From: Sinorhizobium meliloti
GTDB taxonomy: Bacteria; Pseudomonadota; Alphaproteobacteria; Rhizobiales; Rhizobiaceae
Direction of reading: 5' to 3'
Assembly: GCF_017876815.1 (NCBI RefSeq)
Contig: NZ_JAGIOS010000001.1
Coordinates: forward strand, 2,370,001-2,402,000
Length of the DNA: 32,000 nt
The notes under the pieces: model-generated
What the model was told of the DNA's origin: nothing
What the model saw: only the letters and a program-made list of their open reading frames with translations
Database searches by the model: none
Position numbers and translations under genes: made by a program
Shown: piece after piece, positions 6,462 to 28,462 of the stretch
Layout: the number at the start of each line of letters is the position of its first letter
Numbering within the stretch: the first letter of the stretch is position 1

Positions 6462-6508
6462 AGCACTTCCAGGAAAAGTGTGTAACGGTTTTCCGTCGGG
6501 AAGTGCGT
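6459..6508. repeat. Small hairpin (MITE-like) intergenic element beginning at the alpha-glucosidase stop codon
   Basis: TAGAGCACTTCC-aggaaaagtgtgtaacggttttccgtcg-GGAAGTGCGT followed by TA. Terminal inverted arms are GCACTTCC/GGAAGTGC. The sequence type recurs just beyond the IS at 7579-7618. Confidence 0.6.
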
Positions 6509-7565
6509 TAGAGCGGTATGTATTTAAGCCCGTTCATATCCCGCCTCTTTGAAGTAGGCTGCGCATTCCTGTGGGGTGACGGCTTGGAGAATGTGGCGCA
6601 GTTCGTCATGGATTGCGTCGCGTGATCTGGCCTGTGCCTCACGCAACCAGTGCTTGATTTTGGCGAAGAGCTTTTCGATCGGATTGAGATCGGGGGAATA
6701 TTTCGGCAGAAAGAACAGGCGGGCGCCGGCCTTACGGATGGCGGCGCGGATCTCCTGACCCTTATGGGAGCCGAGATTGTCCAGGATGACGATGTCGCCG
6801 GCTTTGAGTTCCGGCACCAGAACTTGCTGGACATAGATGCGGAAGCGTTCGCCATTGATCGGGCCATCGAGGATAAAGGGAGCGCTGACGCGGTCGGCCC
6901 TGAGTGCGGCGACAAAGGTCATGGTGTTCCAATGGCCGAAGGGGGCGTAGCCCACCAGTCGTTCGCCGCGAGGCGCCCAGCCCCGCAGCGGCGCCATGTT
7001 CGTCTTCGTCCAGGTCTCATCGATGAAAACGAGGCGGGCGGGATCAATTCCGGGGCAGTGCTTCAGCCATCGTGCCCGGTGGCGGGCGACGTCGGGCCGC
7101 TCCCGTTCGCTGGCGACCAGCGTCTTTTTTTATAACTCAACCCCTCTTCGTGCACGAAGGTCCAGACGGCGCGATAATCCACCTTCAGGCCGCGCTCGCT
7201 CAACTCGGCGACAAGTCCGTGCAGCGTGAAGTCGCGCTCGCGGCAGCGGCAAAGCAGCCAAGCCCGGTGCGGACCGGAAAGCTTGCGGGGCTTGTGCCCA
7301 CCCATCTGGCCGGGTGCGGCGCTGCCCGTCTCGCGAAACCGCCGCACCCAATCGATCGCGGTGCTGATGCCGATGCCGAAGCGCTTGGCCGCTGCCCGGC
7401 ACGATAGGCCCTCGCCCGTCACCGCATCGACAACGCGTTCCCGAAGATCATTCGAAAAAGGTCTCGCCATAAAGGCCGGCCTCCTTCACCGGCCTGAATG
7501 GTGAATCTGATTTGCGCAGAAAAAGGAATCCCCTTTCCGATTCCGCCTAAATGCATCCCGCTCTA
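6509..7565 (-). mobile_element. IS630-family insertion sequence, copy 1 (1057 bp including flanking TA dinucleotides)
   Basis: Imperfect terminal inverted repeats: TAGAGCGGTATGTATTTAAGC (6509->) and the reverse complement of 7565<- , TAGAGCGGGATGCATTTAGGC. TA at both ends. All six-frame ORF translations are identical to copy 2 (11984-13040), and both ends match base for base where I compared them. Confidence 0.9.
6524..7470 (-). CDS. IS630-family DDE transposase, two ORFs (7470..7063 and 6997..6524) joined by a predicted -1 frameshift
   Basis: N-terminal HTH ORF ([42 protein letters not shown]). C-terminal ORF with LVFIDETW (after the frameshift), [23 protein letters not shown]. Slippery T7 run on the + strand at 7125-7131. 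Confidence 0.85.
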
Positions 7566-7618
7566 GATCAAACGGTTAGAGCATTTCAGTTTTTCCATGA
7601 AACAGTGAAGTGCTCTAG
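7566..7618. repeat. Second small hairpin (MITE-like) element on the other side of IS copy 1
   Basis: gatcaaacggt, then TAGAGCATTTCAgtttttccatgaaacagTGAAGTGCTCTAg. Termini TAGAGCA.../...TGCTCTA. Confidence 0.55.
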
Positions 7619-7654
7619 TGGAGTTGAGGTGCCGCTGCGACAGTGAATGCGGCA

Positions 7655-7674
7655 CCCCCTCTGGCCAGAGGGGG
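7655..7674 (-). terminator. Perfect 20-bp palindrome downstream of the adenine deaminase stop; possible non-canonical terminator
   Basis: CCCCCTCTGGCCAGAGGGGG, 26 nt beyond the stop at 7700, preceded by a second hairpin GTGCCGC-N13-GCGGCAC. No U-tract on the minus strand. Confidence 0.3.
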
Positions 7675-7699
7675 CTTTCCGGATGCCGCGCCTCGACCG

Positions 7700-9397
7700 T
7701 CACCCGATCAGCATGAACCTGTCTACATCCACCAGCCCGCGGTCCGAGATCTTCAAATGCGGGATCACCGGCAGCGGCAGAAAGGCGAGTTGCAGGAAGG
7801 GCTCTTCCAGCGTGGCGCCCAGGGCGAAGGCGGCCTGGCGCAGATGGTGCAGGGTGTCTCGCACGCGCTCGTAAGGTTCGAGGCTCATCAGGCCGGCGAC
7901 GGGCAGGGCGATCTCGCCGGTGACCTTGCCGTCATGGACGACGACGAAGCCGCCTTTGATCTCGCCGAGACGATTGACGGCAAGTGCCATGTCGTCGTCA
8001 TTGACGCCGACGACGCAGATATTATGGCTGTCATGCCCGACGGTGGACGCGATCGCACCCTTCTTCAGGCCGAAGCCCTGGACGAAGCCATTGGCATGAT
8101 TGCCGTTGACGCCGTGGCGCTCGATCACGGCAACCTTGATGATGTCCCGGTCTAGATCGACGCCGGTCCGGTTGCCTTCGGCGGGCAGGCGATACCGGCG
8201 GTGTTCGGTGATGATCTTGCCGGGCAGGACGCCGAGCACCGAAGTCTCGCCTTCGTTGTAGGGGAGGCCGAAGTCCGCGGCCTTGACTTCGCGTGCCTTG
8301 ACGCTGTCGAGCCCCACCGGTTCGACCGGCTTGCGCCCGGCGAAGAGTGCATCCGTAACGCGCCGCCCGGCGGAAAGGACGAGTTCGGCCTTGCAGTTTT
8401 CCAGGCTGTCTACGATGACGAGGTCGGCGCGCCAGCCAGGTGCTACGAGGCCGCGATCGCGCAGGCCGAAGGCGCGCGCGGCGGAAATCGAAGCGGCGCG
8501 ATAGATGGCGAGCGGCTCGACGCCGGCGCTTATAGCCGTGCGGATCATGTGGTCGAGATGGCCCTGCTCGGCGATATCGAGCGGATTGCGGTCGTCGGTG
8601 CAGAGAGCCAGATAGGGCGACAGCCGCTCGGTGAGGATCGGCATGAGGGCCTGCAAGTCCTTGGACACGGAGCCTTCGCGCACGAGGATGTGCATGCCCT
8701 TGCGTATCTTTTCGAGCGCTTCCTCCGCGCTCGTGCATTCGTGATCGGTGCGGATCCCCGCCGCGAGATAGCCGTTCAGTTCCTTGCCGCGGAGCAGAGG
8801 AGCATGGCCGTCGATATGCCCGTCCTGGAAAGCATCGAGCTTGGCGAGGCAAACCGGATCCTTGTTGACCACACCCGGGAAGTTCATGAATTCGGCAAGG
8901 CCGATTACCTTCGGGTGGTGACGGAAGGGCGTGAGGCGCCCGACCGGCAGGTCGGCACCGGACGTCTCCAGGTGGGTCGCCGGCACGCAGGAGGAGAGCT
9001 GGACGCGGATGTCCATGACCGTCTCCATCGCCGAATCCAGGAAATACTGGATGCCTTCGGTGCCGAGCACATTGGCGATCTCGTGCGGATCGCAGACAAC
9101 AGTGGTGATACCGAGCGGCAGCACGCAACGGTCGAACTCGTGCGGGGTAACGAGCGACGATTCGATGTGGAGGTGCGTGTCGATGAAGCCGGGAACGACG
9201 ATGCGGCCGGTAACGTCGATCTCCTCGCGGCCCTCATAGTCGCCGCAGGTACCGACGATGCGCTCGCCCGAGATGGCGATGTCGGAGGCGACGAGCTCGC
9301 CGGTGACGAGATCGAAGAACCGCCCGCCCTTGAGCACGATGTCTGCCGGTTCACGGCCGACGCCCTGATCGATGAGACGCTCCAGCGCTTCGGACAT
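7700..9397 (-). CDS. ade: Adenine deaminase (amidohydrolase superfamily)
   Basis: About 565 aa. [13 protein letters not shown] metal-binding HxH, typical Ade length and architecture. ATG at 9397 (MSEALERL) preceded by GAGGTG; the track ORF extends to 9427. Confidence 0.88.
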
Positions 9398-9435
9398 GTG
9401 TGCACCTCGCCCTTGATGTTGATTCACGACAATAA

Positions 9436-9461
9436 CCCTCTCCCCGGATCCGGGGAAAGGG
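9436..9461. repeat. Short GC hairpin between the aminotransferase and ade genes
   Basis: CCCTCTCCCCGGATCCGGGGAAAGGG. The stem resembles the core of the larger REP units (CCTCTCCCCG/CGGGGAGAGG). Confidence 0.4.
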
Positions 9462-9484
9462 CTTCGCAGCTGGTGAGGAACGCG

Positions 9485-10813
9485 TCAGATGTTGTTCTTC
9501 AGCACGTCGCGCAGCTTGTCGAAAAGCTCGTCGATCTGTCGCTTTTCGATGATCAGCGGCGGCGACAATGCAATGATGTCGCCCGTGGTGCGGATCAGGA
9601 GGCCTTTCTCATAGGCCTTCAAGAAGGCCGAGAAGGCGCGCTTCGTCGGCTCCCCTGCGATCGGCTCGAGCTCGACCGCGCCGATCAGTCCGATATTGCG
9701 GATGTCGATGACATGCGGGCAGTCCTTCAGCGAGTGCAGCGCCTCCTCCCAATAGGGGGCAAGCTCGGCGGCGCGCGTCAGCAGGCCTTCTTCCCTGTAG
9801 GTGTCCAGCGTTCCGAGTGCCGCTGCCGAGGCGATCGGATTGCCCGAATAGGTGTAGCCGTGGAAGAACTCGATAAGGTGTTCCGGCCCGGTCATGAAGG
9901 CATCGTGGATTTCCGATGTCACGAAGACCGCGCCCATCGGAATGACGCCGTTGGTAAGCCCCTTGGCCGTGGTGATGATGTCGGGCTTCACGTCGAAATA
10001 TTGAGCGGCGAAGGGCGTGCCGAGACGGCCATAGCCGGTGATCACCTCGTCGAAGATCAACAGGATGCCGTGCTTGGTGCAGATTTCGCGCAGCTTCTGG
10101 AGATAGCCCTTCGGCGGGATGAGAACACCGGTCGAGCCGGCGACGGGCTCGACGATGACTGCTGCGACCGTCGAGGCGTCATGCAGGGTGACGATGCGCT
10201 CGAGTTCGGCTGCGAGATCGGCGCCGTGCTCGGGCTCGCCGCGGCTAAAGGCGTTCTTGGCCGGCAGGTGCGTGTGTGGAAGGTGGTCGACGCCCGTCAA
10301 CAGCGTGCCGAACATCTTGCGGTTGGCGACGATGCCGCCGACCGAGATGCCGCCGAAGTTGACGCCGTGATAGCCGCGTTCGCGGCCGATGAGCCGGAAG
10401 CGCGAGCCATTGCCCTTGGCGCGGTGGTAGGCGAGAGCGACCTTCAAGGCGGTATCGACCGACTCCGACCCTGAGTTGGTGTAGAGAACGTGGTTCATGC
10501 CCTCGGGCGCGATATCGACCAGCCGATTTGCGAGCTCGAAGGCTTTCGGATGGCCGAGCTGGAAGGCCGGCGCGTAGTCGAGTTCGCCCGCCTGTTCGCG
10601 AATCGCCTCGGTGATTTTCGGCCGACAGTGGCCTGCATTGACGCACCAGAGCCCCGCGGTCCCATCGAGAACCGTCCGCCCGTCATGGGTGGTGTAATAC
10701 ATGTCCTTGGCGCCGACGAACAGCCGCGGCTCCTTCTTGAACTGCCGGTTCGCCGTGAACGGCATCCAGAAGGCGCTGAGATCGTTGGGCGTGGTGTTCA
10801 GGCGGTTGGACAT
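9485..10813 (-). CDS. Class-III PLP aminotransferase (omega-amino acid / beta-alanine:pyruvate transaminase-like)
   Basis: 442 aa. LIFDEVITGYGRLG, PDIITTAKGLTNG (PLP lysine), YTNSGSESVDTALK. RBS GAGGAGG upstream of the ATG at 10813. Confidence 0.88.
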   Translation of the reverse strand: MSNRLNTTPNDLSAFWMPFTANRQFKKEPRLFVGAKDMYYTTHDGRTVLDGTAGLWCVNAGHCRPKITEAIREQAGELDYAPAFQLGHPKAFELANRLVDIAPEGMNHVLYTNSGSESVDTALKVALAYHRAKGNGSRFRLIGRERGYHGVNFGGISVGGIVANRKMFGTLLTGVDHLPHTHLPAKNAFSRGEPEHGADLAAELERIVTLHDASTVAAVIVEPVAGSTGVLIPPKGYLQKLREICTKHGILLIFDEVITGYGRLGTPFAAQYFDVKPDIITTAKGLTNGVIPMGAVFVTSEIHDAFMTGPEHLIEFFHGYTYSGNPIASAAALGTLDTYREEGLLTRAAELAPYWEEALHSLKDCPHVIDIRNIGLIGAVELEPIAGEPTKRAFSAFLKAYEKGLLIRTTGDIIALSPPLIIEKRQIDELFDKLRDVLKNNI

Positions 10814-10902
10814 GTGTTTCCTCCTCGTCGAGTCCCGGCAATCCGGATTTGCCAGGCCGGATTCTTTACCCGCTGGTCAAACTATCAGCCCGCCGATGGG
10901 CG

Positions 10903-11436
10903 TCAAGCCAGGCGAAACGATCCGCTTTTCACGGCCTGGATCACGGCACTCAGCGTGTCCTCCCGGGTGTGTCCTTCGGTCGGGAGAACATGCCGTTCAA
11001 GGGGGCCGAGCGATGAGAGTTGCTGATGAAGCGCTGCGATGGGCACCGGGTCGGTCAACGTGTCCCCGCCGCGCTGTTGGCAGCGCCGGATGGCTACATC
11101 GAGCGGCGGACGCAGAACGACGTAGTGGAGCGGTGCCGTTATTTTCCTGAATGGTTCCAGGAACCACGGTCCGACGATCCCGTCCACAACGACGAAATAG
11201 CCGCCACGTGCGTAGGTTGCGGCCACTTTCGTCAGCACATCGACGACGACGGCGTTTTGTTGGTGAGCTTCAGGCAAATAGGGTGGGATCGCCCCGTTCT
11301 TGATGAAATGCCAGAAGTCGTCGCAGTGAAGATGGACCTTCGACGATCCGGGCTCTGCGGCGAGCGCCTGCGCTGTCGTGGTCTTTCCGGAGCCGGGTGG
11401 CCCGGTGAGGACGAGAATTTCGCTTTCAAGGTTCAT
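10903..11436 (-). CDS. P-loop NTPase / small-molecule kinase-like protein (AAA_33-type), function unknown
   Basis: Walker A LTGPPGSGKTT immediately after MNLESEILV. About 177 aa. The alternative upstream ATG is at 11454. Confidence 0.6.
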   Translation of the reverse strand: MNLESEILVLTGPPGSGKTTTAQALAAEPGSSKVHLHCDDFWHFIKNGAIPPYLPEAHQQNAVVVDVLTKVAATYARGGYFVVVDGIVGPWFLEPFRKITAPLHYVVLRPPLDVAIRRCQQRGGDTLTDPVPIAALHQQLSSLGPLERHVLPTEGHTREDTLSAVIQAVKSGSFRLA

Positions 11437-17167: not shown

Positions 17168-17755
17168 ATGTCCAAACTTTATTTCAGCTATGCGACGATG
17201 AATGCCGGCAAGAGCACGCTGCTCCTGCAGGCCGCCTACAACTATCAGGAGCGCGGCATGCGCGTCGTGATGCTGATAGCAGCCTTCGACGATCGCGCCG
17301 GCCAGGGTCGCATCGCGTCTCGCATCGGGCTGGAATCGGAGGCGATCCCCTTCCGCGCAGAGGATGATCTCCATGGGCTGATCGAGCGCCTGAACGGCGA
17401 CGGCTCCGGTGAAATCGCCTGCGTCTTCGTGGACGAGGCGCAGTTCCTCGGTGAAGATCAGGTCTGGCAGTTGGCGCGTGTGGCGGATCGCCTCGGCATT
17501 CCGGTCATGGCCTATGGCCTGAGGACGGACTTCCAGGGCAAGCTCTTCCCCGGCTCCATGGCTCTGCTCGCTATCGCGGATGAGTTGCGCGAAGTCAGGA
17601 CCATCTGCCATTGCGGGCGCAAGGCAACGATGGTCGTCCGCCTCGACGGCCGCGGCAAGGTCATGCGGGAGGGCGCGCAGGTGGATGTCGGCGGCAACGA
17701 GAAATACGTCTCCTATTGCCGTCGCCATTGGGACGACCGGATGCGCGAAGGCTGA
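17168..17755 (+). CDS. tdk: Thymidine kinase
   Basis: MSKLYFSYATMNAGKSTLLLQAAYNYQERGM aligns with my memory of the E. coli Tdk N-terminus. Zn-ribbon cysteines CHCGRKA...YVSYCRRHW. The alternative ATG is at 17150. Confidence 0.9.
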   Translation: MSKLYFSYATMNAGKSTLLLQAAYNYQERGMRVVMLIAAFDDRAGQGRIASRIGLESEAIPFRAEDDLHGLIERLNGDGSGEIACVFVDEAQFLGEDQVWQLARVADRLGIPVMAYGLRTDFQGKLFPGSMALLAIADELREVRTICHCGRKATMVVRLDGRGKVMREGAQVDVGGNEKYVSYCRRHWDDRMREG

Positions 17756-17915: not shown

Positions 17916-19004
17916 ATGGCGACGCTGCAGAATTTTGATACGGAGATCGAGAAGACCAGAACCGTCGTCAAGGACATGCGCAGCAAGCTCGAGCAGTCCG
18001 GCGTCGTTCTCGAGCAATTCGCCAAGGCGGACACCAAGCTCGGCGACGTCAATTTCGATATCGAGAACGCCCGCATCCAGGACGTCGTCAACCAGCAGAA
18101 GGTGATGGAAGCCAACATCGCCGATCTGATCATCGGACTGGAAGACGCGACCAATGTCTTCGGTGCCGAGTTCGAGAGCATGAAGAGCTATACCGGCTAC
18201 GAGAAGTTCATCGGCATCTTCTCAAGGCAGAAGATGCAGCGCTTGCGCACCGATCGCGTGCGCAACATGTCGCTTGCAGGGAACCTGCAGGAACTGCTTT
18301 CGAAATCGGACACCATCGTCGGCATCCTCAAGGACCAGAAGGCGATCCTCGACCAGCGATACAAGACCTCCGAGCAGAGCCTCATCCAGGTGATCGAGCG
18401 CCGCAAGGGCACGATGGCGGCGCTGGAACAGACGCAGAAGCGGATCGAAGAGCTCAACCCGCTGCTGCTCGATATCGAGAACAGGATCGCCGCCTCGACA
18501 GACCAGAAGACCCGAACCGACCTCGAGGGCGAGCGCTCGCAGCTTGCGACCGAATACAACGAAAAGCAGGCGAAGGAGCAGGAGCTTCTGGCCGAGAGCC
18601 AGACGCTCGAGCGCTACACGGCCATGTTCCAGACCTTCGTCGATTCGCTGAACAACCAGATCGCCGCCCAGAACACGCTGATCAACAAGCTGACCATCGA
18701 CACGGAACAGCGCATCGTTCTCTACAAGGCGCTGGAAGATTCGTTGAAGACGGCTGCGCAGCAGGACGTGGCACACAAGATCAACACGCTCGGCAGCCAG
18801 GTGGACACGGCCGCCGAGGAGACCATGGCCGGGATTGGCGCGGCCGCGCAGCGCCACATCGGCGACTTGCTCGAGATGCATGAAAAGAACATGCTTGCGA
18901 CGCAGGATATCCAGCGGCGCAAGAAACTCGCCGACGACGCCTTCGCGCGCCGCTTCCAGACGGTGATGGACAAGCATAATGCCGCAAATTATGTGAAGCA
19001 GTGA
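17916..19004 (+). CDS. All-helical coiled-coil protein of unknown function (module gene A)
   Basis: 362 aa. RBS GGAGAAGG. No Cys or Trp, a single Pro, rich in Q/E/K/D/L. High GC3, i.e. native codon usage. No catalytic motif recognised. Confidence 0.8.
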   Translation: MATLQNFDTEIEKTRTVVKDMRSKLEQSGVVLEQFAKADTKLGDVNFDIENARIQDVVNQQKVMEANIADLIIGLEDATNVFGAEFESMKSYTGYEKFIGIFSRQKMQRLRTDRVRNMSLAGNLQELLSKSDTIVGILKDQKAILDQRYKTSEQSLIQVIERRKGTMAALEQTQKRIEELNPLLLDIENRIAASTDQKTRTDLEGERSQLATEYNEKQAKEQELLAESQTLERYTAMFQTFVDSLNNQIAAQNTLINKLTIDTEQRIVLYKALEDSLKTAAQQDVAHKINTLGSQVDTAAEETMAGIGAAAQRHIGDLLEMHEKNMLATQDIQRRKKLADDAFARRFQTVMDKHNAANYVKQ

Positions 19005-19065
19005 TCGGCAAGGCGGCAATGACCCGATTTCCGACCGCCTTTCGGCATTTGCCGGGAGAGCTGCC

Positions 19066-20214
19066 ATGAATACCGCCATTTCTCCGGCCGTCAGGCAATA
19101 TTTCGGCTCCATCCGCGCGGCGCTCGCAGGGCTCGAGCTCTTCCTCGGAGACCGCAATTCGCCGCTTTACCGTGACACAGTCGTCGGCGAGATCATCGTT
19201 CCCTATCTTGCCCGGCTGAAAGCCTCGATCGCCTGCTGGGAAAACCGGATCGGTTTCGTCGAACAGTTTCGCATCTCGCGCGCCGAAAGCGGCTTTCCCG
19301 TTTTCCAGAACGTGCTGGAACTCGAGAACGACCGGCAGAATGCGGAGAAGCGGCTTGCGAGCATTCCTTCAACCGATGCGCTGCGCGAGGAGATGGTCGA
19401 TTTCATCCTGAGGCAGAAGGCGTTCCCCGAGGCGCTTCAGGCGCGCATGGCCGAAAGGCTCTATCTGGAGCAGATCGGCAAGGGGGATATCTTTTCGCCG
19501 TTTGTGCTGCCGGAGACGATCCGGGTCGCGGTCAATTCGAAGACGATGCGGCCCTTTTACGTCGTTTCCTGGGGCGCGTTCGACGGCAGCCAGACGCTGC
19601 CGATGATCTATATGGCGACGATCGAGGATTCCTCGGAAAATCTCGTCGAGATGCTGGTGACCGAGGATGGCAAGCTCAATCCGGACGTCCAGATTCCGCT
19701 GCCGGTCGGCGGTCTGCTCAATCCGGAGCTCGCAAGCCGTTTTGACGATTTCGCCTCCAAGAACAGCACCTATTCGCTGACGCCGGTGACGATCGCCACC
19801 AATCTCGACAGGGACTTCCCGGAACTGCATCCGAAGCAGCTTCGGCGGATCGTGCTCGGCCCATTCTATTCGGCGGGCATCACCGAGAACAATGCGAGGA
19901 TCAACGACATTCTCTCCAGGGTGCGCAAGACCGAGAATGCGTGGCTGCTCACCTGGACGGTGCAGGAAGTCTTCTCGAAGGCGGAGCGGCCGGCGACGCG
20001 CGGCTTCTGGTCCTCCACCCAGGCGCAGGAGGAGTTTCACATCGACACCGCCGATCTGGAGGCCGCGCGCATGGGGGTCAGCGCTTACGAGAAGCATGCC
20101 CTGGTGCCGCATGACGCGTACCAGGCGCTCTATGCCTCCGGCGAGGCCGCCCAGGTCTTCGGCGATTACAAGGTGCATGTCATATCCGGCAACCAGGTGG
20201 TGAGCGAGGTCTGA
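19066..20214 (+). CDS. Hypothetical protein (module gene B)
   Basis: 382-aa ORF with native codon bias. Its stop lies 3 nt before the gene C start. No motif recognised. Confidence 0.7.
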   Translation: MNTAISPAVRQYFGSIRAALAGLELFLGDRNSPLYRDTVVGEIIVPYLARLKASIACWENRIGFVEQFRISRAESGFPVFQNVLELENDRQNAEKRLASIPSTDALREEMVDFILRQKAFPEALQARMAERLYLEQIGKGDIFSPFVLPETIRVAVNSKTMRPFYVVSWGAFDGSQTLPMIYMATIEDSSENLVEMLVTEDGKLNPDVQIPLPVGGLLNPELASRFDDFASKNSTYSLTPVTIATNLDRDFPELHPKQLRRIVLGPFYSAGITENNARINDILSRVRKTENAWLLTWTVQEVFSKAERPATRGFWSSTQAQEEFHIDTADLEAARMGVSAYEKHALVPHDAYQALYASGEAAQVFGDYKVHVISGNQVVSEV

Positions 20215-20217
20215 GCC

Positions 20218-22134
20218 ATGGCATTGAACACGGGGCTGACGACGCTGCATGAGGACGAGATCGCCAGACATCAGGCGGTGGCGCAGAGCCTGGTAACCAA
20301 GCTTGCCATTGTCGAGCGGGACGATGGCGCCGCCGCCACACCGCTGGCAGGAACGGGGCGCCGTTTCGTCTCGACGGTCTCGACCGGCGGTCAGCGCCGC
20401 AGCCGCGAGGTCGAACTCGCACGCACCATCCAGGCGGTTCGCAGCGCCGATCCGCTCCTGTCGCCGGCGCAGCATTCGGTACTCTATCGCACCCGCCGCG
20501 GCATCCAGGTGGCGATGGCGGTTGCCGATGTCTTCGCGCGGCAGACGAGCCTTGAACAATTGCAGGCGCGTAACGCCACCGCGCCCCTTACCGGCGAGGA
20601 TGCGGCTCATTTCAAAGCGCTTCTCTCTGCTTCGGCCTATATCGCCGCCTTCACGCTTGCCGCCTATCTCGGCGCGACGCTGCAGGGAGAGGGCGAGCCG
20701 GTGGACGATGCCGCAGAGCCGGATTTCCTTTTCGACACGCCGCAGGATGCGCTGAAAACCATGGTTGCCGGTCTCGACCGCAGCATTGCCGGTGCGCCGG
20801 ACGAGCTCGCGCTGGTCGCACGGGCCCGGGCCTTTTCCCGCATCGCGATCGAGGGGCTGATTGCGCGCAAGGCGCGTTTCACCGGTCTGCAGAATTTCGA
20901 GAGCGTGCACATCCGGCTCGACCAGGACGATTTCACGCTCAACGGTTTCGACGTTGCGCCCGGGCAGAAGCGCAAGCCGCTGGTGATGACCTTCAAGAAG
21001 CCCGAGGAGATCATCGGCAACCACATCGCCAAGTACCAGGCGCTGAAGCTCGCCAAGATGCTGATGGCCTACGACTTCGACCGGCAGATGAACCCTTTCG
21101 TCGAACTCGGCGGTTTTCTCTTCACCTTCATCGGCGACGGCATGCCGGGCACTGGCAAGACGATCCTGATCCAGATGCTCGCCGGCATGCTGCACGAATA
21201 TTGCGGCATCGCCGGTTATCCCTTCCATTACGAGAATTTCGGCGTCGACCAGATTTCCTCCTATCAGGGCAAATCGGGCCAGAATTGCAAGGAATTCGTC
21301 AACAATGTCGTGAACCCGCGGGCGATCGGCTTCGGCACGATCGACGATGTCGACCAGGTGGCGGCAAAGCGCTCCGACGACCGTGCCTCGGCCGGTCAGC
21401 ACGAGGTGACGGCGGTGCTGATGGAGAGCTTCGCCGGCGCCTCGACGGTGGTGCGCGGCAACTGCACCTTCGGCATGTTCTCCAACTATCCGGAGAATGT
21501 CGACGACGCGCTGCGCCAGCGCGCCGGCGCGCGCTGGCTGGTCGACGGGCCGCAGACGGAGGACGACTATATCGACATCTTCGCGCTGCTCGTCGGCAAG
21601 AACCACCAGATCCCGCTCGGCGAGCATGATCTCTATGCCGGTCAGGAGATCAAGCGCGCCGTCTCGCAATCCTATGCCGCGCATGCGCGGCCGCAGGAGG
21701 AGGGGCTTGCCGCGGTCTGGGAACGCTATCAGAAGGAGAAGGGCAAGATCGCCACGCTCGCCGATGTCGGCGCCTACCTGCACATGATCAAGGAGGCGGA
21801 ACCCCGCTTCACCGGGCGCGCGATCAGGAACATCACCGATGCCGTCAAGCTGAGGGCCATGGACGTCGAACTGCCCGACGACTGGTTCAAGGACGCCGGC
21901 TCGTTCATGCATAGGCCCTACGACGAGAAGAAGGCGATGATCGAGGAACTGCGAGGCCCGATCACCATCGACATGGTGCTGCAGGAAATCAATCGCTATG
22001 CCGATAGCGAGTTCCGCTACACCGACAAATCCGACGATGCGGCCGTCGGCGAGATCATCCGCCGCGAGCGCCAGCGCGAGAGGGCGGTCCGAGAGATCGA
22101 GACGATGAAGCGCGAGGGCAGGTGGCAGGGATGA
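20218..22134 (+). CDS. Classical-clade AAA+ ATPase with unknown N-terminal (~250 aa) and C-terminal (~180 aa) regions (module gene C)
   Basis: Walker A GDGMPGTGKT (21133-21162). Walker B GFGTIDDVD (DD at 21343-21348). SRH-like FSNYPENVDDALRQRAGAR. A pre-Walker segment VMTFKKPEEIIGNHIAKYQALKLAK resembles the AAA N-linker. Confidence 0.88.
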   Translation: MALNTGLTTLHEDEIARHQAVAQSLVTKLAIVERDDGAAATPLAGTGRRFVSTVSTGGQRRSREVELARTIQAVRSADPLLSPAQHSVLYRTRRGIQVAMAVADVFARQTSLEQLQARNATAPLTGEDAAHFKALLSASAYIAAFTLAAYLGATLQGEGEPVDDAAEPDFLFDTPQDALKTMVAGLDRSIAGAPDELALVARARAFSRIAIEGLIARKARFTGLQNFESVHIRLDQDDFTLNGFDVAPGQKRKPLVMTFKKPEEIIGNHIAKYQALKLAKMLMAYDFDRQMNPFVELGGFLFTFIGDGMPGTGKTILIQMLAGMLHEYCGIAGYPFHYENFGVDQISSYQGKSGQNCKEFVNNVVNPRAIGFGTIDDVDQVAAKRSDDRASAGQHEVTAVLMESFAGASTVVRGNCTFGMFSNYPENVDDALRQRAGARWLVDGPQTEDDYIDIFALLVGKNHQIPLGEHDLYAGQEIKRAVSQSYAAHARPQEEGLAAVWERYQKEKGKIATLADVGAYLHMIKEAEPRFTGRAIRNITDAVKLRAMDVELPDDWFKDAGSFMHRPYDEKKAMIEELRGPITIDMVLQEINRYADSEFRYTDKSDDAAVGEIIRRERQRERAVREIETMKREGRWQG

Positions 22135-22172
22135 AGGTTGTGTTCGCGGCATTTGCCCTCCACCTCGGGGCT

Positions 22173-22226
22173 GCCCCTCACCCTAGCCCTCTCCCCGCGC
22201 GCGGGGAGAGGGCTAGGGTGAGGGGC
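22173..22226. repeat. Perfect 54-bp palindrome (REP-like unit), 39 nt after the AAA+ stop codon
   Basis: GCCCCTCACCCTAGCCCTCTCCCCGCG|CGCGGGGAGAGGGCTAGGGTGAGGGGC. The arms are exact reverse complements. Confidence 0.9.
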
Positions 22227-22246
22227 AAGAGGGCGGACCAAAAGAG

Positions 22247-22651
22247 ATGAGAGGAGCGAACGAACGCAAGACAGAACGCGCGAGAGGTCTGCGGCAAAGC
22301 GACAACGATGCAGAAGCGCTCCTTTGGTCGGAGCTGAGAGACCGGCGTCTAAACGGCTTCAAGTTCGTCCGGCAGGTCGCCGTCGGTCCTTACTTTGCTG
22401 ATTTCGCCTGCCGTGATGAGAGGCTGGTCGTCGAGGTCGACGGCAGTCAGCATCAGATCGGCAGCGGCGATGCGAGGCGCGACAAGTTCATGGTCATGAA
22501 TGGATGGAGTGTGCTCCGCTTCTGGAATACGGACATCTTCAATGACCGCGCCGCGGTACTGGAGACGATCGTGGCGGTGCTCGAGAAGCGGTTGGTGCGG
22601 GAAGTGAGGAGTGCGGATTTGACGTTCATTCCGGGGGAGAAGAAGAGATGA
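22247..22651 (+). CDS. DUF559 (Vsr/restriction-endonuclease-like fold) domain protein
   Basis: 134 aa. LRQSDNDAEALLWSELRDRRLNGFKFVRQVAVGPYFADFACRDERLVVEVDGSQH...WSVLRFWN, typical of DUF559 as I recall it. Flanked by REP units on both sides. Confidence 0.75.
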   Translation: MRGANERKTERARGLRQSDNDAEALLWSELRDRRLNGFKFVRQVAVGPYFADFACRDERLVVEVDGSQHQIGSGDARRDKFMVMNGWSVLRFWNTDIFNDRAAVLETIVAVLEKRLVREVRSADLTFIPGEKKR

Positions 22652-22700
22652 GTCCGGTGTTGAATTTGGCGTCTCGGTCTGCCCCTCTCTTCAGCCTATT

Positions 22701-22808
22701 GCCCCTCACCCTAACCCTCTCCCCGCGCGCGGGGAGAGGGGACGCCGTTGTGTTCGATCGCACCCGACAACGCGCCCATGGGATCTCGTCCCCTCTCCCC
22801 GCCTGCGG
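22701..22808. repeat. Composite REP/RIME-like element, left part (unit 1, 46-nt spacer, and first half of unit 2), interrupted by an IS
   Basis: 22701-22742 is identical to 3537-3578. 22789-22808 (TCCCCTCTCCCCGCCTGCGG) is the left half of the inverted unit. Confidence 0.85.
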
Positions 22809-24107
22809 CAGGGCTGTCCGGGGAAAATTCATGCATAGCGGAAGACCATTTGGTTTGGGATGGTCCGGGGTTTTGGTCGGCTTGGATTGACCTGCGGCGG
22901 CTTGTGGATTTCGGCGATGCTTTTGCGCTGGAACAGGCACTGGGTGACGAGGTCGGTGAAGCGCAGGATCGGTAGAGGGACGCGGGCGAGGCGGGCGGCG
23001 ATGCGCAACAGTGCATAGGCGATCATCGCCGCGAAGATCTGCAGGCGGATGGCGTTGTCGTTGTTGCCGAGGAACTTGCGGATCTTGAGGTGCTGTTTGA
23101 TCCAGCGGAACAGAAGCTCGATCTGCCAGCGATCCTTATAGAGCTGGCCGATCTCGACGGCGGAGCGCTCGAGGTCGTTGGTCAGAAGCGTGATCGTATC
23201 GCCGTCCTGGCGCTTGACGATTACCCGGCGCAAGCCGATCGGCAGCTTGGAATCGCCCTTGCTGGCGAGGCTGACCTGGCTGTCTTCGAGGACCAGGAAG
23301 CCATCGCCTTGAGGTTGCTCAACGGGGCGTTCAGCGACCAAAGCCAGTCCCATGTTGGTCTTCGGCCGGGTGACGAAACTGGCGCCGGCTTCGGCGATCG
23401 CCGTCCACCAGCCGTAATGGCAGTAGCCCTTGTCGAAGACATAGGTTGCGCCCTTTTCGATGGTGATCGTGCGGCCGATCTGGGCGTCGTTGACGTTGGC
23501 GTCGGTGATGTCGAGGATGCCTGGACAATCGGCCTTGGGATCATAGACGACATGCAGCTTCATGCCGCGGATGCGGCCGTTCGACTTGGCCCAATCGTAC
23601 AGCTTACCCAGCGGTATCGGGGTCGAATCGATCAGCCGCAGCATCTTGGTGCCCTCCCGGCGCGTCTGCCGGTCGAGCTGACCGGCCAGAAGCGCGAAGG
23701 TCTCGGCGAAGACGGCGACCGGGCGGCGGCGGTTGGCGTCCGACAGCGTCGAGCGCATCAGCCGGCCACTGCCGAGATGGTAATGATGCTGACTGTTGGC
23801 GTTGAAGCTCGCCTCCAACCCGCGCAGGCTGGTCGTGGCGCTCAACTGGGCATAGATCAGTGCCACCAGATGATCCCAGCTGGTAAAGCACTTGTCGTAG
23901 GCATCCCCGGCATGACGATCCACAATCGCCTGAAAGCTGCGGCGATCAATCGCTTTCAGCAGCTGGGCGAAAATGCTAGGGGTGAACCGCATGCTCCGTC
24001 TCCTTTTCTGAGTCTCGACAACCAGAAAATAGACGGAAAAACGCCGTCTGACGGGGCATGCGCCTGCGACATTTCGATTCACCCGGAACTTTCCCCGGAC
24101 AGCCCTG
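22809..24107 (-). mobile_element. IS4/IS5-superfamily insertion sequence (1299 bp) inserted into the REP hairpin
   Basis: Terminal IRs: CAGGGCTGTCCGGGGAAAATTC (22809->) and the reverse complement of 24107<- , CAGGGCTGTCCGGGGAAAGTTC. Flanked by a 9-bp near-perfect direct repeat: CGCCTGCGG (22800-22808) and CGCGTGCGG (24108-24116). Confidence 0.88.
22829..23992 (-). CDS. DDE transposase (DDE_Tnp_1 type, IS4/IS5 superfamily)
   Basis: ATG at 23992 (MRFTPSIFAQLLKAIDRRSF) with RBS AAGGAGA. ATYVFDKGY, LLTNDL, and the YKDRWQIELLFRWIKQ signature. Confidence 0.88.
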   Translation of the reverse strand: MRFTPSIFAQLLKAIDRRSFQAIVDRHAGDAYDKCFTSWDHLVALIYAQLSATTSLRGLEASFNANSQHHYHLGSGRLMRSTLSDANRRRPVAVFAETFALLAGQLDRQTRREGTKMLRLIDSTPIPLGKLYDWAKSNGRIRGMKLHVVYDPKADCPGILDITDANVNDAQIGRTITIEKGATYVFDKGYCHYGWWTAIAEAGASFVTRPKTNMGLALVAERPVEQPQGDGFLVLEDSQVSLASKGDSKLPIGLRRVIVKRQDGDTITLLTNDLERSAVEIGQLYKDRWQIELLFRWIKQHLKIRKFLGNNDNAIRLQIFAAMIAYALLRIAARLARVPLPILRFTDLVTQCLFQRKSIAEIHKPPQVNPSRPKPRTIPNQMVFRYA

Positions 24108-24154
24108 CGCGTGCGGGGAGAGGGTTAGGGTGAGGGGCAAAAGGTGAGGGGCAG
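24108..24154. repeat. Composite REP/RIME-like element, right part (second half of the inverted unit)
   Basis: CGCGTGCGGGGAGAGGGTTAGGGTGAGGGGC plus a trailing GGTGAGGGGCAG. Removing the IS and one copy of the 9-bp duplication restores a 42-nt unit of the same length as 3625-3666. Confidence 0.85.
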
Positions 24155-24175
24155 AACGCTGAGGAGCATGGCCGC

Positions 24176-25465
24176 ATGAAGCGCCTTTTGGAAGCGGAGC
24201 TCATCTATGGACGGCTGCTTGATATTTCCGAGCCGCATCTCGTCGCGCGCTACAACAAGGCTCTCAATGGCTTCGGGCTGAAACCTACGGCTCTCCAGCG
24301 GTTCAGCATCGACATGACCGGCTTCTCACCCGAAATCGCCGAGGAAATCGGCGACCGCGACTATCTGGATCCGAACCGGGTCAACCGGCGCTTCATCATC
24401 CTGACACCGGCGCAGGCGGAGCTGCCGGTCGTGCATACGAGCTTCTCCAACACTGCGGCACTGATGCACGAATTCTTCAACGCCAATGGCCGCGCGATCA
24501 ACGCGATCACCATCAAGGATGCGCTCTACGGCGAGATCGAGGATTCGGTCTCGGTCGTCGAGGACATTGACGATCTGCTTTCCATCAACGAAGTCCGCTT
24601 CCGGGTGCTTTCGGCCGAGGACATGCTCGGCAAGGCGACCGAACTGCGCGAGCTCGTGGACCGGCTGAAAAAGGTGCCGAACGCCTGGGCGGACGACGCG
24701 ATGCTCGATCGGATGGTCGAACTCGCCAGGACGACCGGCGACATAAGGCAGAACGTGCTCGTGCCGGACGAACTCGTCTTCCGCCATGAGGCCTTCTGGG
24801 CCAATCACTTCGGCGGCGTCTACGTCTTCCTCGACGAGAAGACGACGACTGTCATCTGCGACCCCTCGGTGCCCGGTTTCCGCCGGTCGCGGCCCTGGCA
24901 GGTCAGCTACATGGCCATAACCGACCACGCCCGCATCTATGACTTTCTGGCGACGACCAACCGGCTGCAATTGCCGCAGGCATCCTGGGTGCAGGAGTCC
25001 GGCCTCTTCCAGCATCGCGCGGACATGGTGATCCGCGGGCTCGTCGACGCCGCCGACCCGAATGCGGACCTGATGAATGTCGACCGGATCTGGCTGCAGA
25101 CCTGGATCCACCGCAATGCGGCGCTCGTGGCGCGCGACGGGATTTACCCCTTCCTTCAGGAAATGGCGCGGGCGATCGCTGCGACGGGCACGGTCAGGAT
25201 GCAGGACGTCGCCCCGGAGAACCGGTTCCTGCTCGTCCGGGCCGCCCCGCAGCATCCGGATCAATGGCTCGTCAACCGCCTGATCTCCGAACTCGTCCCG
25301 CGCGATTTCGTCTCGCGCTTCGTGTTCGACAAGCAAGGCTTCTACAAAGCCTATGAGGGCTACAGCGAAAAGTTCCGCGAATATGTTGTTGCGACACTGA
25401 CCGGCACATATCTCAAGGACAAGGCCGCCTTCCGTCACAAGCTTTACGGTCTCAAAGAGGAATAA
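24176..25465 (+). CDS. Hypothetical protein (module gene D)
   Basis: 429-aa ORF. RBS GAGGAG 9 nt upstream. Its stop lies 3 nt before the gene E start. No motif recognised. Confidence 0.7.
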   Translation: MKRLLEAELIYGRLLDISEPHLVARYNKALNGFGLKPTALQRFSIDMTGFSPEIAEEIGDRDYLDPNRVNRRFIILTPAQAELPVVHTSFSNTAALMHEFFNANGRAINAITIKDALYGEIEDSVSVVEDIDDLLSINEVRFRVLSAEDMLGKATELRELVDRLKKVPNAWADDAMLDRMVELARTTGDIRQNVLVPDELVFRHEAFWANHFGGVYVFLDEKTTTVICDPSVPGFRRSRPWQVSYMAITDHARIYDFLATTNRLQLPQASWVQESGLFQHRADMVIRGLVDAADPNADLMNVDRIWLQTWIHRNAALVARDGIYPFLQEMARAIAATGTVRMQDVAPENRFLLVRAAPQHPDQWLVNRLISELVPRDFVSRFVFDKQGFYKAYEGYSEKFREYVVATLTGTYLKDKAAFRHKLYGLKEE

Positions 25466-25468
25466 AAC

Positions 25469-26692
25469 ATGTTCGATCCGATCGTTGCGTTCTTCCAGCG
25501 TGTATTCACCGCGATCGGCCGTGGCATCGGATTGGCGGTGGCGTGGCTTCTCTGGCCGTTCGTCGCGCTCGGCAACTGGTATCGGGGACGAAGCTGGATC
25601 ATCAAGGGGCCGATCGGCCTGATCCTCCTCTGCCTCGTGCTCTTCTACGCCTACTTTGTCTGGCAGACGCAAGCCTGGACGAATTTCGACCCGGACTATG
25701 TCGACCGATACAAGCTCGCCGACCGCAGGACGCCGGCCGGTTCACCCGTCAGCGGTCCGGGGGCAACAACGGGACAGTCAGGCTCGGCGGCTGACGCAAA
25801 CCAGGCCGCCGCGGTCGCTCCTTCCGGTGCGGACAGTACGACCGAAGCCCTTGCCGTGGCCCAGCTTCCGGCCGGGACGGTCTGCCAGACTTCGGCCATC
25901 GTCGACGTGGCGGCCGACCTCATCGACCTCAATGTCAATCAGAATGCCTGGATATCGTCGATGCTCGGCTACAAGCTCGGCTTTTTCGGGATTGACTGGG
26001 ACGACACGCCCTGGCTCGACAACAAGGCGTCCTTCCAGCGCGGCGTCAACCAGGCGGTGCGCCGCACGTCGGTGGAACTCGTCGATTCGCTTGGGCGCGT
26101 CCGTGGCACGTCGGGGGTCAACAACGAGCTCCAGAACGCGCGCGGAAGCATCCAGTTCGACGAGGAAACCTGGTATTTCGGCCTGAACCCCTTCGGCCCC
26201 AAAACCCCGACCCCGAGCTTCTACCGCTCGGCTATGCGCGATCTCAGGAAGTTCAACGTCTCGCTCGGCAAGTGCGAAGCGATCTTCGACGGCCGATCCG
26301 ACAACATGGTCGAGTTCCTCGACCGGGTCGCGAACGATCTCGGCAATACCTCGGCGATCATCCGCGAACGTTCGGAGTTCCACAATGGCGGCTGGTTCGA
26401 CACGCGGGCGGACGACCGCTTCTGGTTCGCCTTCGGCCAGCTCTACGGCTATTACGGCATTCTCTCGGCCGCCGGCGCCGATTTCGAGAATGTCGTCACC
26501 CAACGTGGCCTGGCGCCGATCTATACCGAAACGATGAAGCAGCTTCGCGCGGCACTCAGGATCCAGCCGCTCATCATCTCGAACGGGCGCGAGGACGGCT
26601 GGATCATGCCGACGCACCTCGCGACGATGGGCTTCTACATCCTCCGGGTTCGATCGAACCTCGTGGAGATGCGCGATATTCTTGCCCGTTGA
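25469..26692 (+). CDS. Membrane protein with N-terminal two-TM hairpin, Pro/Ala/Ser-rich linker and a DUF2333-like C-terminal domain (module gene E)
   Basis: TM segments GIGLAVAWLLWPFVALGNW and GPIGLILLCLVLFYAYFVW. Linker RRTPAGSPVSGPGATTGQSGSAADANQAAAVAPSGA. C-terminal motifs (SDNMVEFLDRVANDLG, DDRFWFAFGQLYGY, PLIISNGREDGWIMPTHLATMGFYI) resemble my recollection of DUF2333; this is unverified. Confidence 0.75.
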   Translation: MFDPIVAFFQRVFTAIGRGIGLAVAWLLWPFVALGNWYRGRSWIIKGPIGLILLCLVLFYAYFVWQTQAWTNFDPDYVDRYKLADRRTPAGSPVSGPGATTGQSGSAADANQAAAVAPSGADSTTEALAVAQLPAGTVCQTSAIVDVAADLIDLNVNQNAWISSMLGYKLGFFGIDWDDTPWLDNKASFQRGVNQAVRRTSVELVDSLGRVRGTSGVNNELQNARGSIQFDEETWYFGLNPFGPKTPTPSFYRSAMRDLRKFNVSLGKCEAIFDGRSDNMVEFLDRVANDLGNTSAIIRERSEFHNGGWFDTRADDRFWFAFGQLYGYYGILSAAGADFENVVTQRGLAPIYTETMKQLRAALRIQPLIISNGREDGWIMPTHLATMGFYILRVRSNLVEMRDILAR

Positions 26693-26782
26693 CGGGCGGC
26701 ATGTCAGCGTAAGCGATAGGAAACGGAACTTGCGCATTTTCGCGGAGGAGGCGGGATGCGCGAGGCAAACTGGGGGGAAGCC

Positions 26783-28462
26783 GTGGGAGAGGTAAAGTCC
26801 GACATCGAGATCGCGCGCGCCGCGCGCAAGCAGCCGATCATGGAGGTCGGCGCGAAGCTCGGCATTCCGCCGGAGCATCTGCTTCCCTACGGCCATGACA
26901 AGGCCAAGGTCAGCGCCGAATTCATCGCGGCGCAAAACGAGAAAAGGAACGGCCGGCTCATTCTGGTGACGGCGATCAACCCGACGCCGGCGGGCGAGGG
27001 CAAGACGACGACGACCGTCGGCCTCGGCGACGGCTTGAACCGCATCGGCAAGAAGGCGATCGTCTGCATCCGCGAGGCGTCGCTCGGTCCCTGCTTCGGT
27101 ATCAAGGGCGGGGCGGCGGGCGGCGGTTACGCCCAGGTTGTGCCGATGGAGGACATCAATCTCCATTTCACCGGCGATTTCCATGCGATCACGTCGGCGC
27201 ATAATCTGCTCTCCGCCTTGATCGACAACCATATCTATTGGGGCAACGAGCAGGCGATCGACATTCGCCGCATCGCCTGGCGGCGGGTCATGGACATGAA
27301 CGACCGGGCGCTTCGCCAGATCGTCGGCTCCCTCGGCGGCGTCGCCAACGGCTATCCAAGAGAGACCGGCTTCGACATCACCGTCGCCTCGGAAGTCATG
27401 GCGATCCTGTGCCTGGCTATGGACATCAAGGATCTCGAAAAGCGGCTCGGCAACATCATTATCGGGTACCGTCGTGACAAGAGCCCGGTCTTCGCCCGGG
27501 ACATCAAGGCGGATGGGGCAATGGCGGTACTGCTCAAGGACGCGATGCAGCCGAACCTGGTGCAGACGCTCGAGAACAACCCCGCCTTCGTCCATGGCGG
27601 CCCCTTCGCCAATATCGCGCATGGCTGCAATTCGGTCGTGGCCACCACGACGGCGTTGAAGCTTGCCGACTATGTGGTAACCGAGGCCGGCTTCGGTGCC
27701 GATCTCGGCGCCGAGAAATTCTTCGACATCAAGTGCCGCAAGGCAGGGCTCACGCCCGATGCCGCCGTAATCGTCGCGACTGTCCGCGCGATCAAGATGA
27801 ACGGCGGAGTGAAGAGGGAAGACCTCGGGAGAGAGAGCGTCGAGGCGGTCAGGAAGGGGTGCGCCAATCTCGGCCGCCACATCCAGAACGTCAAGAAGTT
27901 CGGCGTACCGGTGCTCGTCGCGATCAACCATTTCACCTCCGATACCGAGGCCGAGGTCCGGGCGATCAAGGATTATGTCAGAACGCTCGGTTCCGAAGCG
28001 GTTCTCTGCAAGCACTGGGCCGAGGGTTCGGCGGGCATCGAGGAGCTCGCTTACAAGGTCGTGGACCTCGCCAATGCCGGCCATTCGCAATTTTCGCCGC
28101 TCTACCCCGACGAGATGCCGCTCTTCCAGAAGATCGAGACGATCGCAAAGGACATCTATCACGCAAGCGAGGTGATTGCCGACAAGCTGGTGCGCGAACA
28201 ACTCCGGACCTGGGAAGACCAGGGCTATGGCGATCTGCCGATCTGCATGGCGAAGACCCAATATTCCTTCTCCACCGACCCGAACCTGCGCGGAGCACCG
28301 ACGGGCCACGCCGTGCCGATACGCGAGGTTCGGCTGGCCGCCGGGGCCGGCTTCATCGTCGTGATAACCGGCGAGATCATGACGATGCCCGGCCTGCCGA
28401 AGGTGCCTTCTTCGGAGCGGATCCGGCTGAACGAGCAGGGGTACATTGAAGGGTTGTTCTGA
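26783..28462 (+). CDS. fhs: Formate--tetrahydrofolate ligase
   Basis: [11 protein letters not shown]...[16 protein letters not shown]-loop, full-length Fhs architecture. GTG 26783 ([10 protein letters not shown]) follows GGGGGAAG. The upstream in-frame ATG 26756 is an alternative start. Confidence 0.92.

Follow-up and report, generated by a model that had tools for sequence, protein, structure and literature searches.

The genes described here lie in a 32,000-nucleotide stretch of the Sinorhizobium meliloti chromosome (contig NZ_JAGIOS010000001.1, positions 2,370,001 to 2,402,000), the whole of which is called the window; coordinates are those of the window unless a locus is named. Five genes on its + strand, A to E, surround and include an AAA+ ATPase gene, C. 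The genes A, B, C, and D form an operon that spans phyla, with the same genes, in the same order and on the same strand, in distant lineages. The unit is a four-gene soluble core joined to an interchangeable membrane module, and E lies outside the core. A preliminary description, written from the window sequence alone, had proposed that A to E are a genuine module and not chance neighbours, a proposal that a check of co-occurrence and synteny supports. It had also treated the module as a unit of five families. That view holds for A to D, which co-occur across phyla, and fails for E, which is lineage-specific and confined to Rhizobiaceae-like loci.

The C protein was used to search 1.84e9 cluster representatives at a threshold of E ≤ 1e-3, and two sets of 80 loci around C relatives, 160 loci in all, were collected. 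The distant set consists of one-genome-per-species contigs, for which the genome scan used a 14-sequence alignment, and contains Flavobacteriaceae and other Bacteroidota, Trueperaceae (Deinococcota), Gammaproteobacteria, Desulfobacterota, Verrucomicrobiota, and Patescibacteria. The Alphaproteobacteria-like set consists of metagenome loci around intermediate C members. Neighbouring genes were assigned by open reading frame (ORF) calling, phmmer, and hidden Markov model (HMM) searches, and counts were made only over loci with enough flank. A is found upstream of C in 64 of 66 distant and 49 of 49 Alphaproteobacteria-like loci (113/115 in total). B, which directly adjoins C, is upstream in 61 of 66 and 48 of 49 (109/115), and D is downstream in 64 of 68 and 38 of 40 (102/108). 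The order and strand of A-B-C-D are constant in all loci. Neighbours that keep one order in about 160 loci of several phyla are far more than chance would produce.

The flanks, in contrast, differ wholly by clade: the choline transporter, tdk, and fhs genes in one, and ABC-F, MnmG, aldehyde dehydrogenase and DeoC, hemC, or sulfatase genes in others. It follows from these clade-specific flanks that the conserved block extends from A to just past D. Stop and start codons abut or overlap at the C/D junction, and at the junction of D with the next gene, in many loci. Within the Rhizobiaceae, the C homologues of Sinorhizobium, Rhizobium, Pararhizobium, and Shinella share more than 80% identity, and B homologues are 74–89% identical across genera. 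At the level of phyla the distribution is patchy, and it includes megaplasmids: in Vibrio vulnificus and V. parahaemolyticus, replicons of about 0.9 Mb carry A-B-C-D followed by mfd. On the 0.93-Mb plasmid of V. vulnificus FORC_036 (L164) the four genes occupy positions 5632–11,180 of the locus, and the C protein there is 38% identical to that of the window.

The membrane genes that follow D are of several kinds. In S. meliloti the gene is E (25,469–26,692, + strand), which encodes 407 residues. Hydropathy shows no hydrophobic segments in A to D and two in E, both N-terminal, in keeping with the earlier account of E as a protein with two transmembrane (TM) segments. To that account we add that an Ala/Ser/Gly-rich linker and a DUF2333 domain follow (PF10095, E = 3e-16, 59.8 bits against a cut-off of 22). 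E is a divergent member of DUF2333, a family of unknown function, because the best stretch covers only profile positions 86–196 of 330. The DUF2333 gene is found only in Rhizobiaceae-like loci, in 2 of 30 Alphaproteobacteria-like and 0 of 60 distant loci. Two metagenome loci share the A-to-E order, and one of them (L112) also has the tdk...fhs setting. Most other Alphaproteobacteria-like loci have two genes after D, one for a two-TM protein of about 89 residues (24/30) and one for a DUF1523 protein that bears a TM segment at each end (25/30), and their stop and start codons often overlap. The distant clades have instead a three-TM protein of about 180 residues, X (58/60), and a protein of about 550 residues with N-terminal TM segments, Y (58/60). 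The spacing from D to the membrane gene is usually 0–25 nt, or stop and start codons overlap. No homology was found by hhalign among E, the DUF1523 protein, the two-TM peptide, X, and Y; the best pair, the two-TM peptide with X, reached a probability of 32%, which probably reflects TM bias. The membrane link proposed earlier is thus borne out in that a membrane protein after D is nearly universal, though non-homologous between lineages and lacking on the Vibrio megaplasmids.

C (20,218–22,134, + strand) encodes 638 residues, with a Pfam AAA match at residues 308–438 (PF00004, E = 1.8e-10). An N-terminal domain of about 275 residues precedes the AAA core, at about residues 285–510, and an extension of about 130 residues forms the C-terminus. 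Among the 1.84e9 representatives only 640 matched C at E ≤ 1e-3, 186 of them at E < 1e-30; the full-length relatives at the stricter level are mostly 600–680 residues long, with identities down to 24%. Because matches are so few, C founds a distinct AAA+ family that does not blend into generic AAA+ proteins. The nearest PDB sequences, at E values from 8e-6 to 5e-4, are the threading ATPases Yme1 (E = 8e-6), Afg2 (E = 5e-5), and PAN, and similarity to solved structures is limited to about 130 residues of the AAA core. Residues 1–300 have no Pfam match, and a profile of the N-terminal domain found nothing in the PDB at E ≤ 10.

Residue conservation in C was counted over 161 family members. In the Walker A motif, G308 to T315 (GMPGTGKT; 21,139–21,162, + strand), residues G308, P310, G311, T312, G313, and K314 are invariant in 161/161, and the family consensus is G-x-P-G-T-G-K-[TS]. 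Pore loop 1, Y349-Q350-G351 (21,262–21,270, + strand), aligns with the YVG of Yme1 and has the family consensus [YF]-Q-G-x-S. Y/F349, Q350, G351, and S353 are invariant or conservatively replaced in all 161 members. The aromatic residue and the Gly are kept, and the middle residue is Gln where the aromatic-hydrophobic-Gly loop of substrate-threading AAA+ proteins has a hydrophobic one. No stretch of the distant-clade alignment is more conserved than the pore loop, which the tool chose as its search pattern. The sensor-1 residue N423 and the second region of homology, with the putative arginine fingers R435 and R439 (21,484–21,534, + strand), align with the N...ALxRxGR of Afg2 and Yme1; N423, D429, A431, R435, and R439 are invariant in 161/161. 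C retains all the residues required for nucleotide binding, for inter-subunit arginine contacts, and for the pore-loop aromatic.

The Walker B motif is different. It reads TIDDVD, with D376-D377 at 21,343–21,348 (+ strand), and the pair is DD in 161/161 members and never DE, with D or E at +2, so that the catalytic Glu of classical AAA+ proteins is absent. The earlier assignment of C to the classical clade is upheld by Walker A, sensor-1, and the arginines, with Walker B as a caveat. A family-wide loss of the canonical catalytic Glu is unusual in an otherwise intact AAA+ core. The invariant DD suggests slow or regulated hydrolysis. Overall, the features of C would suit an AAA+ protein that forms a ring, threads its substrate, and hydrolyses ATP by an unusual chemistry.

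The three partners of C are soluble proteins by hydropathy. Profile libraries (Pfam, NCBIfam, PADLOC, and PHROGs) were scanned with the window proteins, and Pfam, NCBIfam, and PADLOC also with the distant-clade and Vibrio versions. Across these libraries the only matches were AAA, DUF6638, DUF2333, and DUF1523, the rest being noise-level coiled-coil or AAA similarities, and in A to D no nuclease, toxin, other effector, or nucleic-acid-binding domain was detected. Thus the statement that none of the five proteins can be assigned to a characterised pathway withstands the profile check. PDB searches with single sequences of A to E, and with profiles of A, the C N-terminal domain, and D, gave nothing significant beyond the AAA core. 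Internal paralogy was not detected by hhalign among A, B, the N- and C-terminal domains of C, and D.

A (17,916–19,004, + strand; 362 residues) matches no family in Pfam, NCBIfam, PADLOC, or PHROGs. It has one Pro in 362 residues, is rich in A, L, Q, and E, and is predicted to be soluble and helical. Two length types occur. The short type, of about 360 residues, is found in Alphaproteobacteria and Vibrio; in Bacteroidota and other distant clades A has about 445 residues, with an extra segment of about 85 residues and a YGIDPxxSSFF tail. Motifs conserved in the alignment include FQSKERF and SDTEER, and an HMM built from the distant-clade upstream genes matches the window A at E = 3e-20. A is the best-conserved gene of the block within the Alphaproteobacteria, being 91% identical to the Shinella protein (L001, 7509–8597) and 82% identical to that of L112 (7550–8638), above fhs, and the least conserved between phyla (17–19%). 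Within a lineage it is constrained along its whole length.

B (19,066–20,214, + strand; 382 residues) has, as described before, no recognisable motif, in Pfam, NCBIfam, PADLOC, or PHROGs, and its 1597 homologues are all named "hypothetical". Its AlphaFold2 model has a helical N-terminal part and a β-rich C-terminal domain (pLDDT 73, pTM 0.69), with no Foldseek match in the PDB (best E = 0.79). D (24,176–25,465, + strand; 429 residues) had also been said to lack a motif. This is not so: D matches DUF6638, a family of unknown function, over nearly the whole profile (PF20343, E = 4e-76, 256.9 bits against a cut-off of 27, positions 2–413 of 439), and the distant-clade D scores 170 bits against the same family. 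Invariant N-terminal motifs, among them RYN, F-x-x-D-x-x-G-x-SPE, and GD, lie in an α/β N-terminal domain of the AlphaFold2 model, which is completed by a helical C-terminal part (pLDDT 77, pTM 0.72). For the D model there is no Foldseek match in the PDB (best E = 2.0) or in BFVD (best E = 0.88). The structural comparison suggested for the predicted proteins has therefore been carried out for B and D, with no fold match for either.

The strength of constraint on the block can be judged against its neighbours. Between S. meliloti and Shinella, identity is 91% for A, 84% for B, 82% for C, 79% for D, and 70% for E, as compared with 78.5% for tdk, 86% for fhs, and 62% for a DUF559 gene inserted between C and D. 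A more distant Alphaproteobacteria-like contig, in which A is 82% identical, keeps the tdk...fhs setting. Purifying selection acts on A to D as strongly as on the neighbouring housekeeping genes. No PADLOC, PHROGs, or antiphage NCBIfam match was found for A, B, D, or E, nor any match to a PADLOC or NCBIfam defence model for A, B, and D of the distant clade; C has only generic AAA similarity to defence models, and D has no match in a phage collection. Housekeeping-like identities at a fixed locus, together with the absence of defence and phage matches, are the signature of a vertically inherited, constrained function. The identities near those of tdk and fhs, and the same tdk...fhs position in Shinella, agree with the earlier placement of the block in the core genome rather than in a recent island.

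The layout of the locus in the window is as follows. An ORF scan recovers A to E as five + strand ORFs and reproduces all the coordinates, sizes, and spacings of the preliminary description: 61 nt between A and B, 3 nt between B and C, 2041 nt between C and D, and 3 nt between D and E. The block is preceded by tdk (17,168–17,755, + strand; PF00265; SMc02736 in strain 1021) and followed by fhs, for formate-tetrahydrofolate ligase (26,756–28,462, + strand; PF01268, E = 5e-269). Both lie outside the module, and the Pfam matches confirm them as the housekeeping flanks that had been named. G+C content at third codon positions is 0.81–0.86 in A to E, matching 0.81 in tdk and 0.84 in fhs, so that the native look of the codon usage is also confirmed. 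Two Shinella genomes have the order tdk, a 124-residue gene, A, B, C, an insert, D, E, and fhs.

The 2041-nt interval between C and D consists, as had been claimed, of repeats, a DUF559 gene, and an insertion sequence (IS), all of which were recovered by feature scans. Next to C is a perfect 56-nt palindromic repeat (22,172–22,227; 28 + 28 nt, 100% complementary), outside the module. The DUF559 gene (22,247–22,651, + strand; PF04480, E = 1.5e-34), with a Vsr-like endonuclease fold, is inserted cargo. A second copy of the palindrome, found among the repeat families, lies at 22,695–22,740. The IS is an ISRm16-like element of the IS4 family on the − strand (22,808–24,108; DDE_Tnp_1 and IS4 models), with its longest transposase ORF at 22,829–24,082. 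A repeat scan located its 23-nt terminal inverted repeats (22,808–22,830 and 24,086–24,108) and a third copy of the palindrome, split by the IS into 22,787–22,808 and 24,108–24,144. The repeat copies consist of the GC-rich palindrome TGCCCCTCACCCTAGCCCTCTCCCCGCG and its complement, and they bracket the DUF559 gene. The palindrome looks like an IS target or an element of the repetitive extragenic palindromic type. An identical C-D layout, with the annotated ISRm16 in the same place, is present in S. meliloti strain Ak57; the Ak57 record is labelled a plasmid although it is 3.7 Mb long.

The same operon junction draws insertions in unrelated lineages. The C-D gap is at most 150 bp in 46 of 133 loci and exceeds 500 bp in 68 of 133, and about 90% of the inserted ORFs are on the operon strand. 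Elsewhere insertions are much rarer: the share of loci with a B-C gap above 300 bp is 15% in the distant set and 2% in the Alphaproteobacteria-like set. The cargo includes NUDIX, SnoaL-like, S26 signal peptidase, DUF559, DUF4328, amidohydrolase, AraC, Mrr, HEPN, PIN, D12 methyltransferase, and IS200 genes, in addition to the ISRm16-like element of the window. In Shinella the insert is DUF559 in one genome and a ribbon-helix-helix (RHH)/ParE pair in the other, and the DUF559 protein of the window is only 62% identical to the Shinella copy. About 18 Flavobacteriaceae loci have a gene of about 190–215 residues between C and D (for example, L057, 12,041–12,622), and those that were scanned match NUDIX (8 Pfam hits). 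In Pseudomonas fluorescens, a stand-alone duf2333 gene adjoins a NUDIX hydrolase gene (PMC5256989); this pairing and that in the Flavobacteriaceae slot may be a coincidence. An RNA gene or attachment site was considered as the cause of the slot, and neither a tRNA nor an Rfam family is present in the slot of the window. We regard the slot as a permissive junction. Many loci have C and D abutting or overlapping, and 46 of 133 gaps are at most 150 bp; this supports one ancestral operon, with the contiguous arrangement that had been postulated.

The literature gives one lead on regulation. The strain 1021 gene SMc02736 is tdk, from a gene association in a metabolic model (PMC5929573), and A, B, and C are therefore probably SMc02735, SMc02734, and SMc02733. 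An in vitro screen recovered a 166-bp fragment bound by ChvI inside SMc02733 (PMC3687685). SMc02733 being probably C, the fragment would lie within gene C and provides a weak lead toward envelope-stress regulation. An alignment of the region upstream of A from four loci revealed no conserved regulatory box, and a promoter and terminator scan gave background level. Literature searches found no mention of DUF6638 and only incidental mentions of DUF2333 and DUF1523, and fitness data for SMc02731–SMc02735 were not found in the transposon-sequencing supplements searched.

We propose, tentatively, that the block encodes a membrane-docked, substrate-threading AAA+ remodelling machine, which we put forward as the leading interpretation of the conserved motifs and gene order while holding it at somewhat less than an even chance. 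A-B-C-D would be a self-contained operon for a cytoplasmic AAA+ machine at the inner face of the cell membrane, in which C would form a ring with a pore that a polypeptide is drawn through. Its substrate and adaptors would be found among A, B, and D, which are conserved. The membrane proteins, which are not, make less likely substrates. It is tempting to propose that the long helical A is the best candidate for an assembly that C builds up or takes apart; such a role would parallel, by analogy, those in Vps4/ESCRT-III, NSF/SNARE, and the ClpV-driven sheath of the type VI secretion system (TssBC). The lineage-specific membrane proteins would dock or sense at the membrane via D, a role that E may fill in S. 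meliloti. As to the process served, envelope or membrane maintenance, or stress, is a guess.

Several observations weigh against this proposal. The Vibrio megaplasmids carry A-B-C-D with no adjacent membrane partner. A Patescibacteria locus (L038, 8478–14,366), from a metagenome-assembled genome of Candidatus Lloydbacteria, reads A-C-X-Y, with B and D not detected; it is either a reduced candidate-phyla variant or an artefact of assembly or ORF calling. Neither Pfam nor the N-domain profile search of the PDB revealed an MIT or other recognisable substrate-binding N-domain in C. Given its DD Walker B, C could be a switch rather than a motor, and some non-hydrolysing AAA domains, such as NSF-D2, have a DD Walker B. 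For A, the profile search of the PDB gave only noise-level coiled-coil matches (Vipp1, E = 0.88), and for B and D the models are of only moderate quality, so that the assignment of no known fold, or of a new one, is provisional. A literature search found no paper on these genes and no experimental datum for any member.

Alternatively, A-B-C-D could be an anti-phage or conflict system, with the core as a sensor and ATPase chassis and the C|D slot as the place of exchangeable effectors. The slot itself invites this view, as extra genes are found there in about half of the loci, about 90% of them on the operon strand, and DUF559, Mrr, HEPN, PIN, ParE/RHH, D12 methyltransferase, and NUDIX are among them. 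The location on Vibrio megaplasmids, the patchiness at the phylum level, and the weak AAA-level similarity of C to TRIP13 and IetA point the same way. Yet no defence model of PADLOC or NCBIfam recognises A, B, or D in either clade, D finds no match in a phage collection, 46 of 133 loci have no cargo, and much of the cargo is not effector-like (SnoaL, signal peptidase, AraC, IS). Moreover, the locus is fixed and 79–91% conserved across Rhizobiaceae genera, like tdk and fhs and unlike defence islands, whereas the DUF559 cargo is much less conserved (62%). We therefore consider a conflict system unlikely.

The insertions bear also on whether the block is one unit or two that lie side by side, A-B-C and D plus its membrane protein, with separate functions and promoters. 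That they gather at the C|D boundary, leaving a gap above 500 bp in 68 of 133 loci, that C and D of S. meliloti lie 2 kb apart with an IS on the opposite strand between them, and that the ChvI-bound fragment in SMc02733, probably C, could mark an internal promoter (PMC3687685) would all agree with two units. However, D follows C in 102 of 108 loci across phyla although the membrane partner changes, and it has kept its place beside C through insertions that arose repeatedly and independently; in many loci the two genes abut or overlap, and the Vibrio megaplasmids hold A-B-C-D together with no membrane genes. The chance of two separate units accordingly seems slight. The Vibrio version figures differently in a further explanation, by which the function is soluble, in quality control (for example, a dedicated unfoldase or chaperone) or linked to nucleic acids, and the membrane genes are incidental. 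A to D have no TM segments, the Vibrio cluster has no membrane partner, and genes such as tdk, mfd, RNase H, and NUDIX are near the cluster in one clade or another. Such neighbours change with every clade, however, and have the look of background synteny; scans of A to D detect no nucleic-acid-binding domain, and almost all loci have a tightly coupled membrane gene immediately after D. A purely soluble role thus appears improbable.

A wider statement may be ventured, with considerable reserve: A-B-C-D could be an unrecognised, phylum-spanning, membrane-associated machine, a bacterial functional analogue of Vps4/ESCRT-III or NSF/SNARE, made of a new AAA+ family with a DD Walker B, three families with no known fold, and interchangeable membrane modules. 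We think it doubtful that all of this will hold. The C|D junction may also have been selected as a place where accessory genes land. The block merits attention in any case, as its four genes have stayed linked in lineages as far apart as Rhizobia, Flavobacteria, Deinococcota relatives, and candidate-phyla bacteria and are as tightly conserved as housekeeping genes. No function has been described for A to D, two of which have no Pfam family, and such blocks tend to hide new cell biology. The constant but interchangeable membrane partners and the threading-motor hallmarks of C point to an unstudied process close to the membrane. The family-wide DD Walker B bears on AAA+ mechanism, and the recurrent insertion slot inside the operon bears on how accessory genes choose landing sites. 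With a genetically tractable species such as S. meliloti and the probable locus tags given above, the question is directly testable.

Among known systems, Vps4/ESCRT-III, with its archaeal form CdvC/CdvB and the bacterial ESCRT-III relatives PspA and Vipp1, resembles the block in placing a classical-type AAA+ protein with an aromatic pore loop beside a long helical protein, with a tie to the membrane. For the block, too, the favoured working model would be ATP-driven turnover of a helical structure on a membrane. The match of C to CdvC is a weak one at the AAA level (E = 7e-4). In contrast to Vps4, C has no MIT domain, its N-domain matches nothing, and its Walker B is DD; A, at 360–450 residues, is far longer than ESCRT-III proteins and has no PspA_IM30 or Snf7 match at E ≤ 0.1, and the obligatory partners B and D have no ESCRT counterpart. 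NSF/SNAP/SNARE offers a classical-clade ring ATPase with adaptors acting on coiled-coil bundles at membranes, and NSF-D2 shares the DD Walker B with C. However, C contains only one AAA module, the cluster revealed no adaptor of the SNAP or TPR kind, and A has no detectable SNARE homology. With FtsH/Yme1, Msp1, and Cdc48/Afg2, C has in common the S-x-Ar-x-G-x-S context of the pore loop (Ar, aromatic) and the arginine-bearing second region of homology, but C has neither a TM anchor nor a protease domain and belongs to a separate family. TRIP13/Cap6 of CBASS and IetA of IetAS show weak core similarity to C (E = 1e-5 for both TRIP13 and IetA), with scores far below family level; no HORMA protein, IetS protease, or other cognate partner is present at the locus, and the conservation and synteny of A to D are core-gene-like. 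In its broad kind A-B-C-D would be an AAA+ remodelling machine with dedicated partners, and it is a member of no described system.

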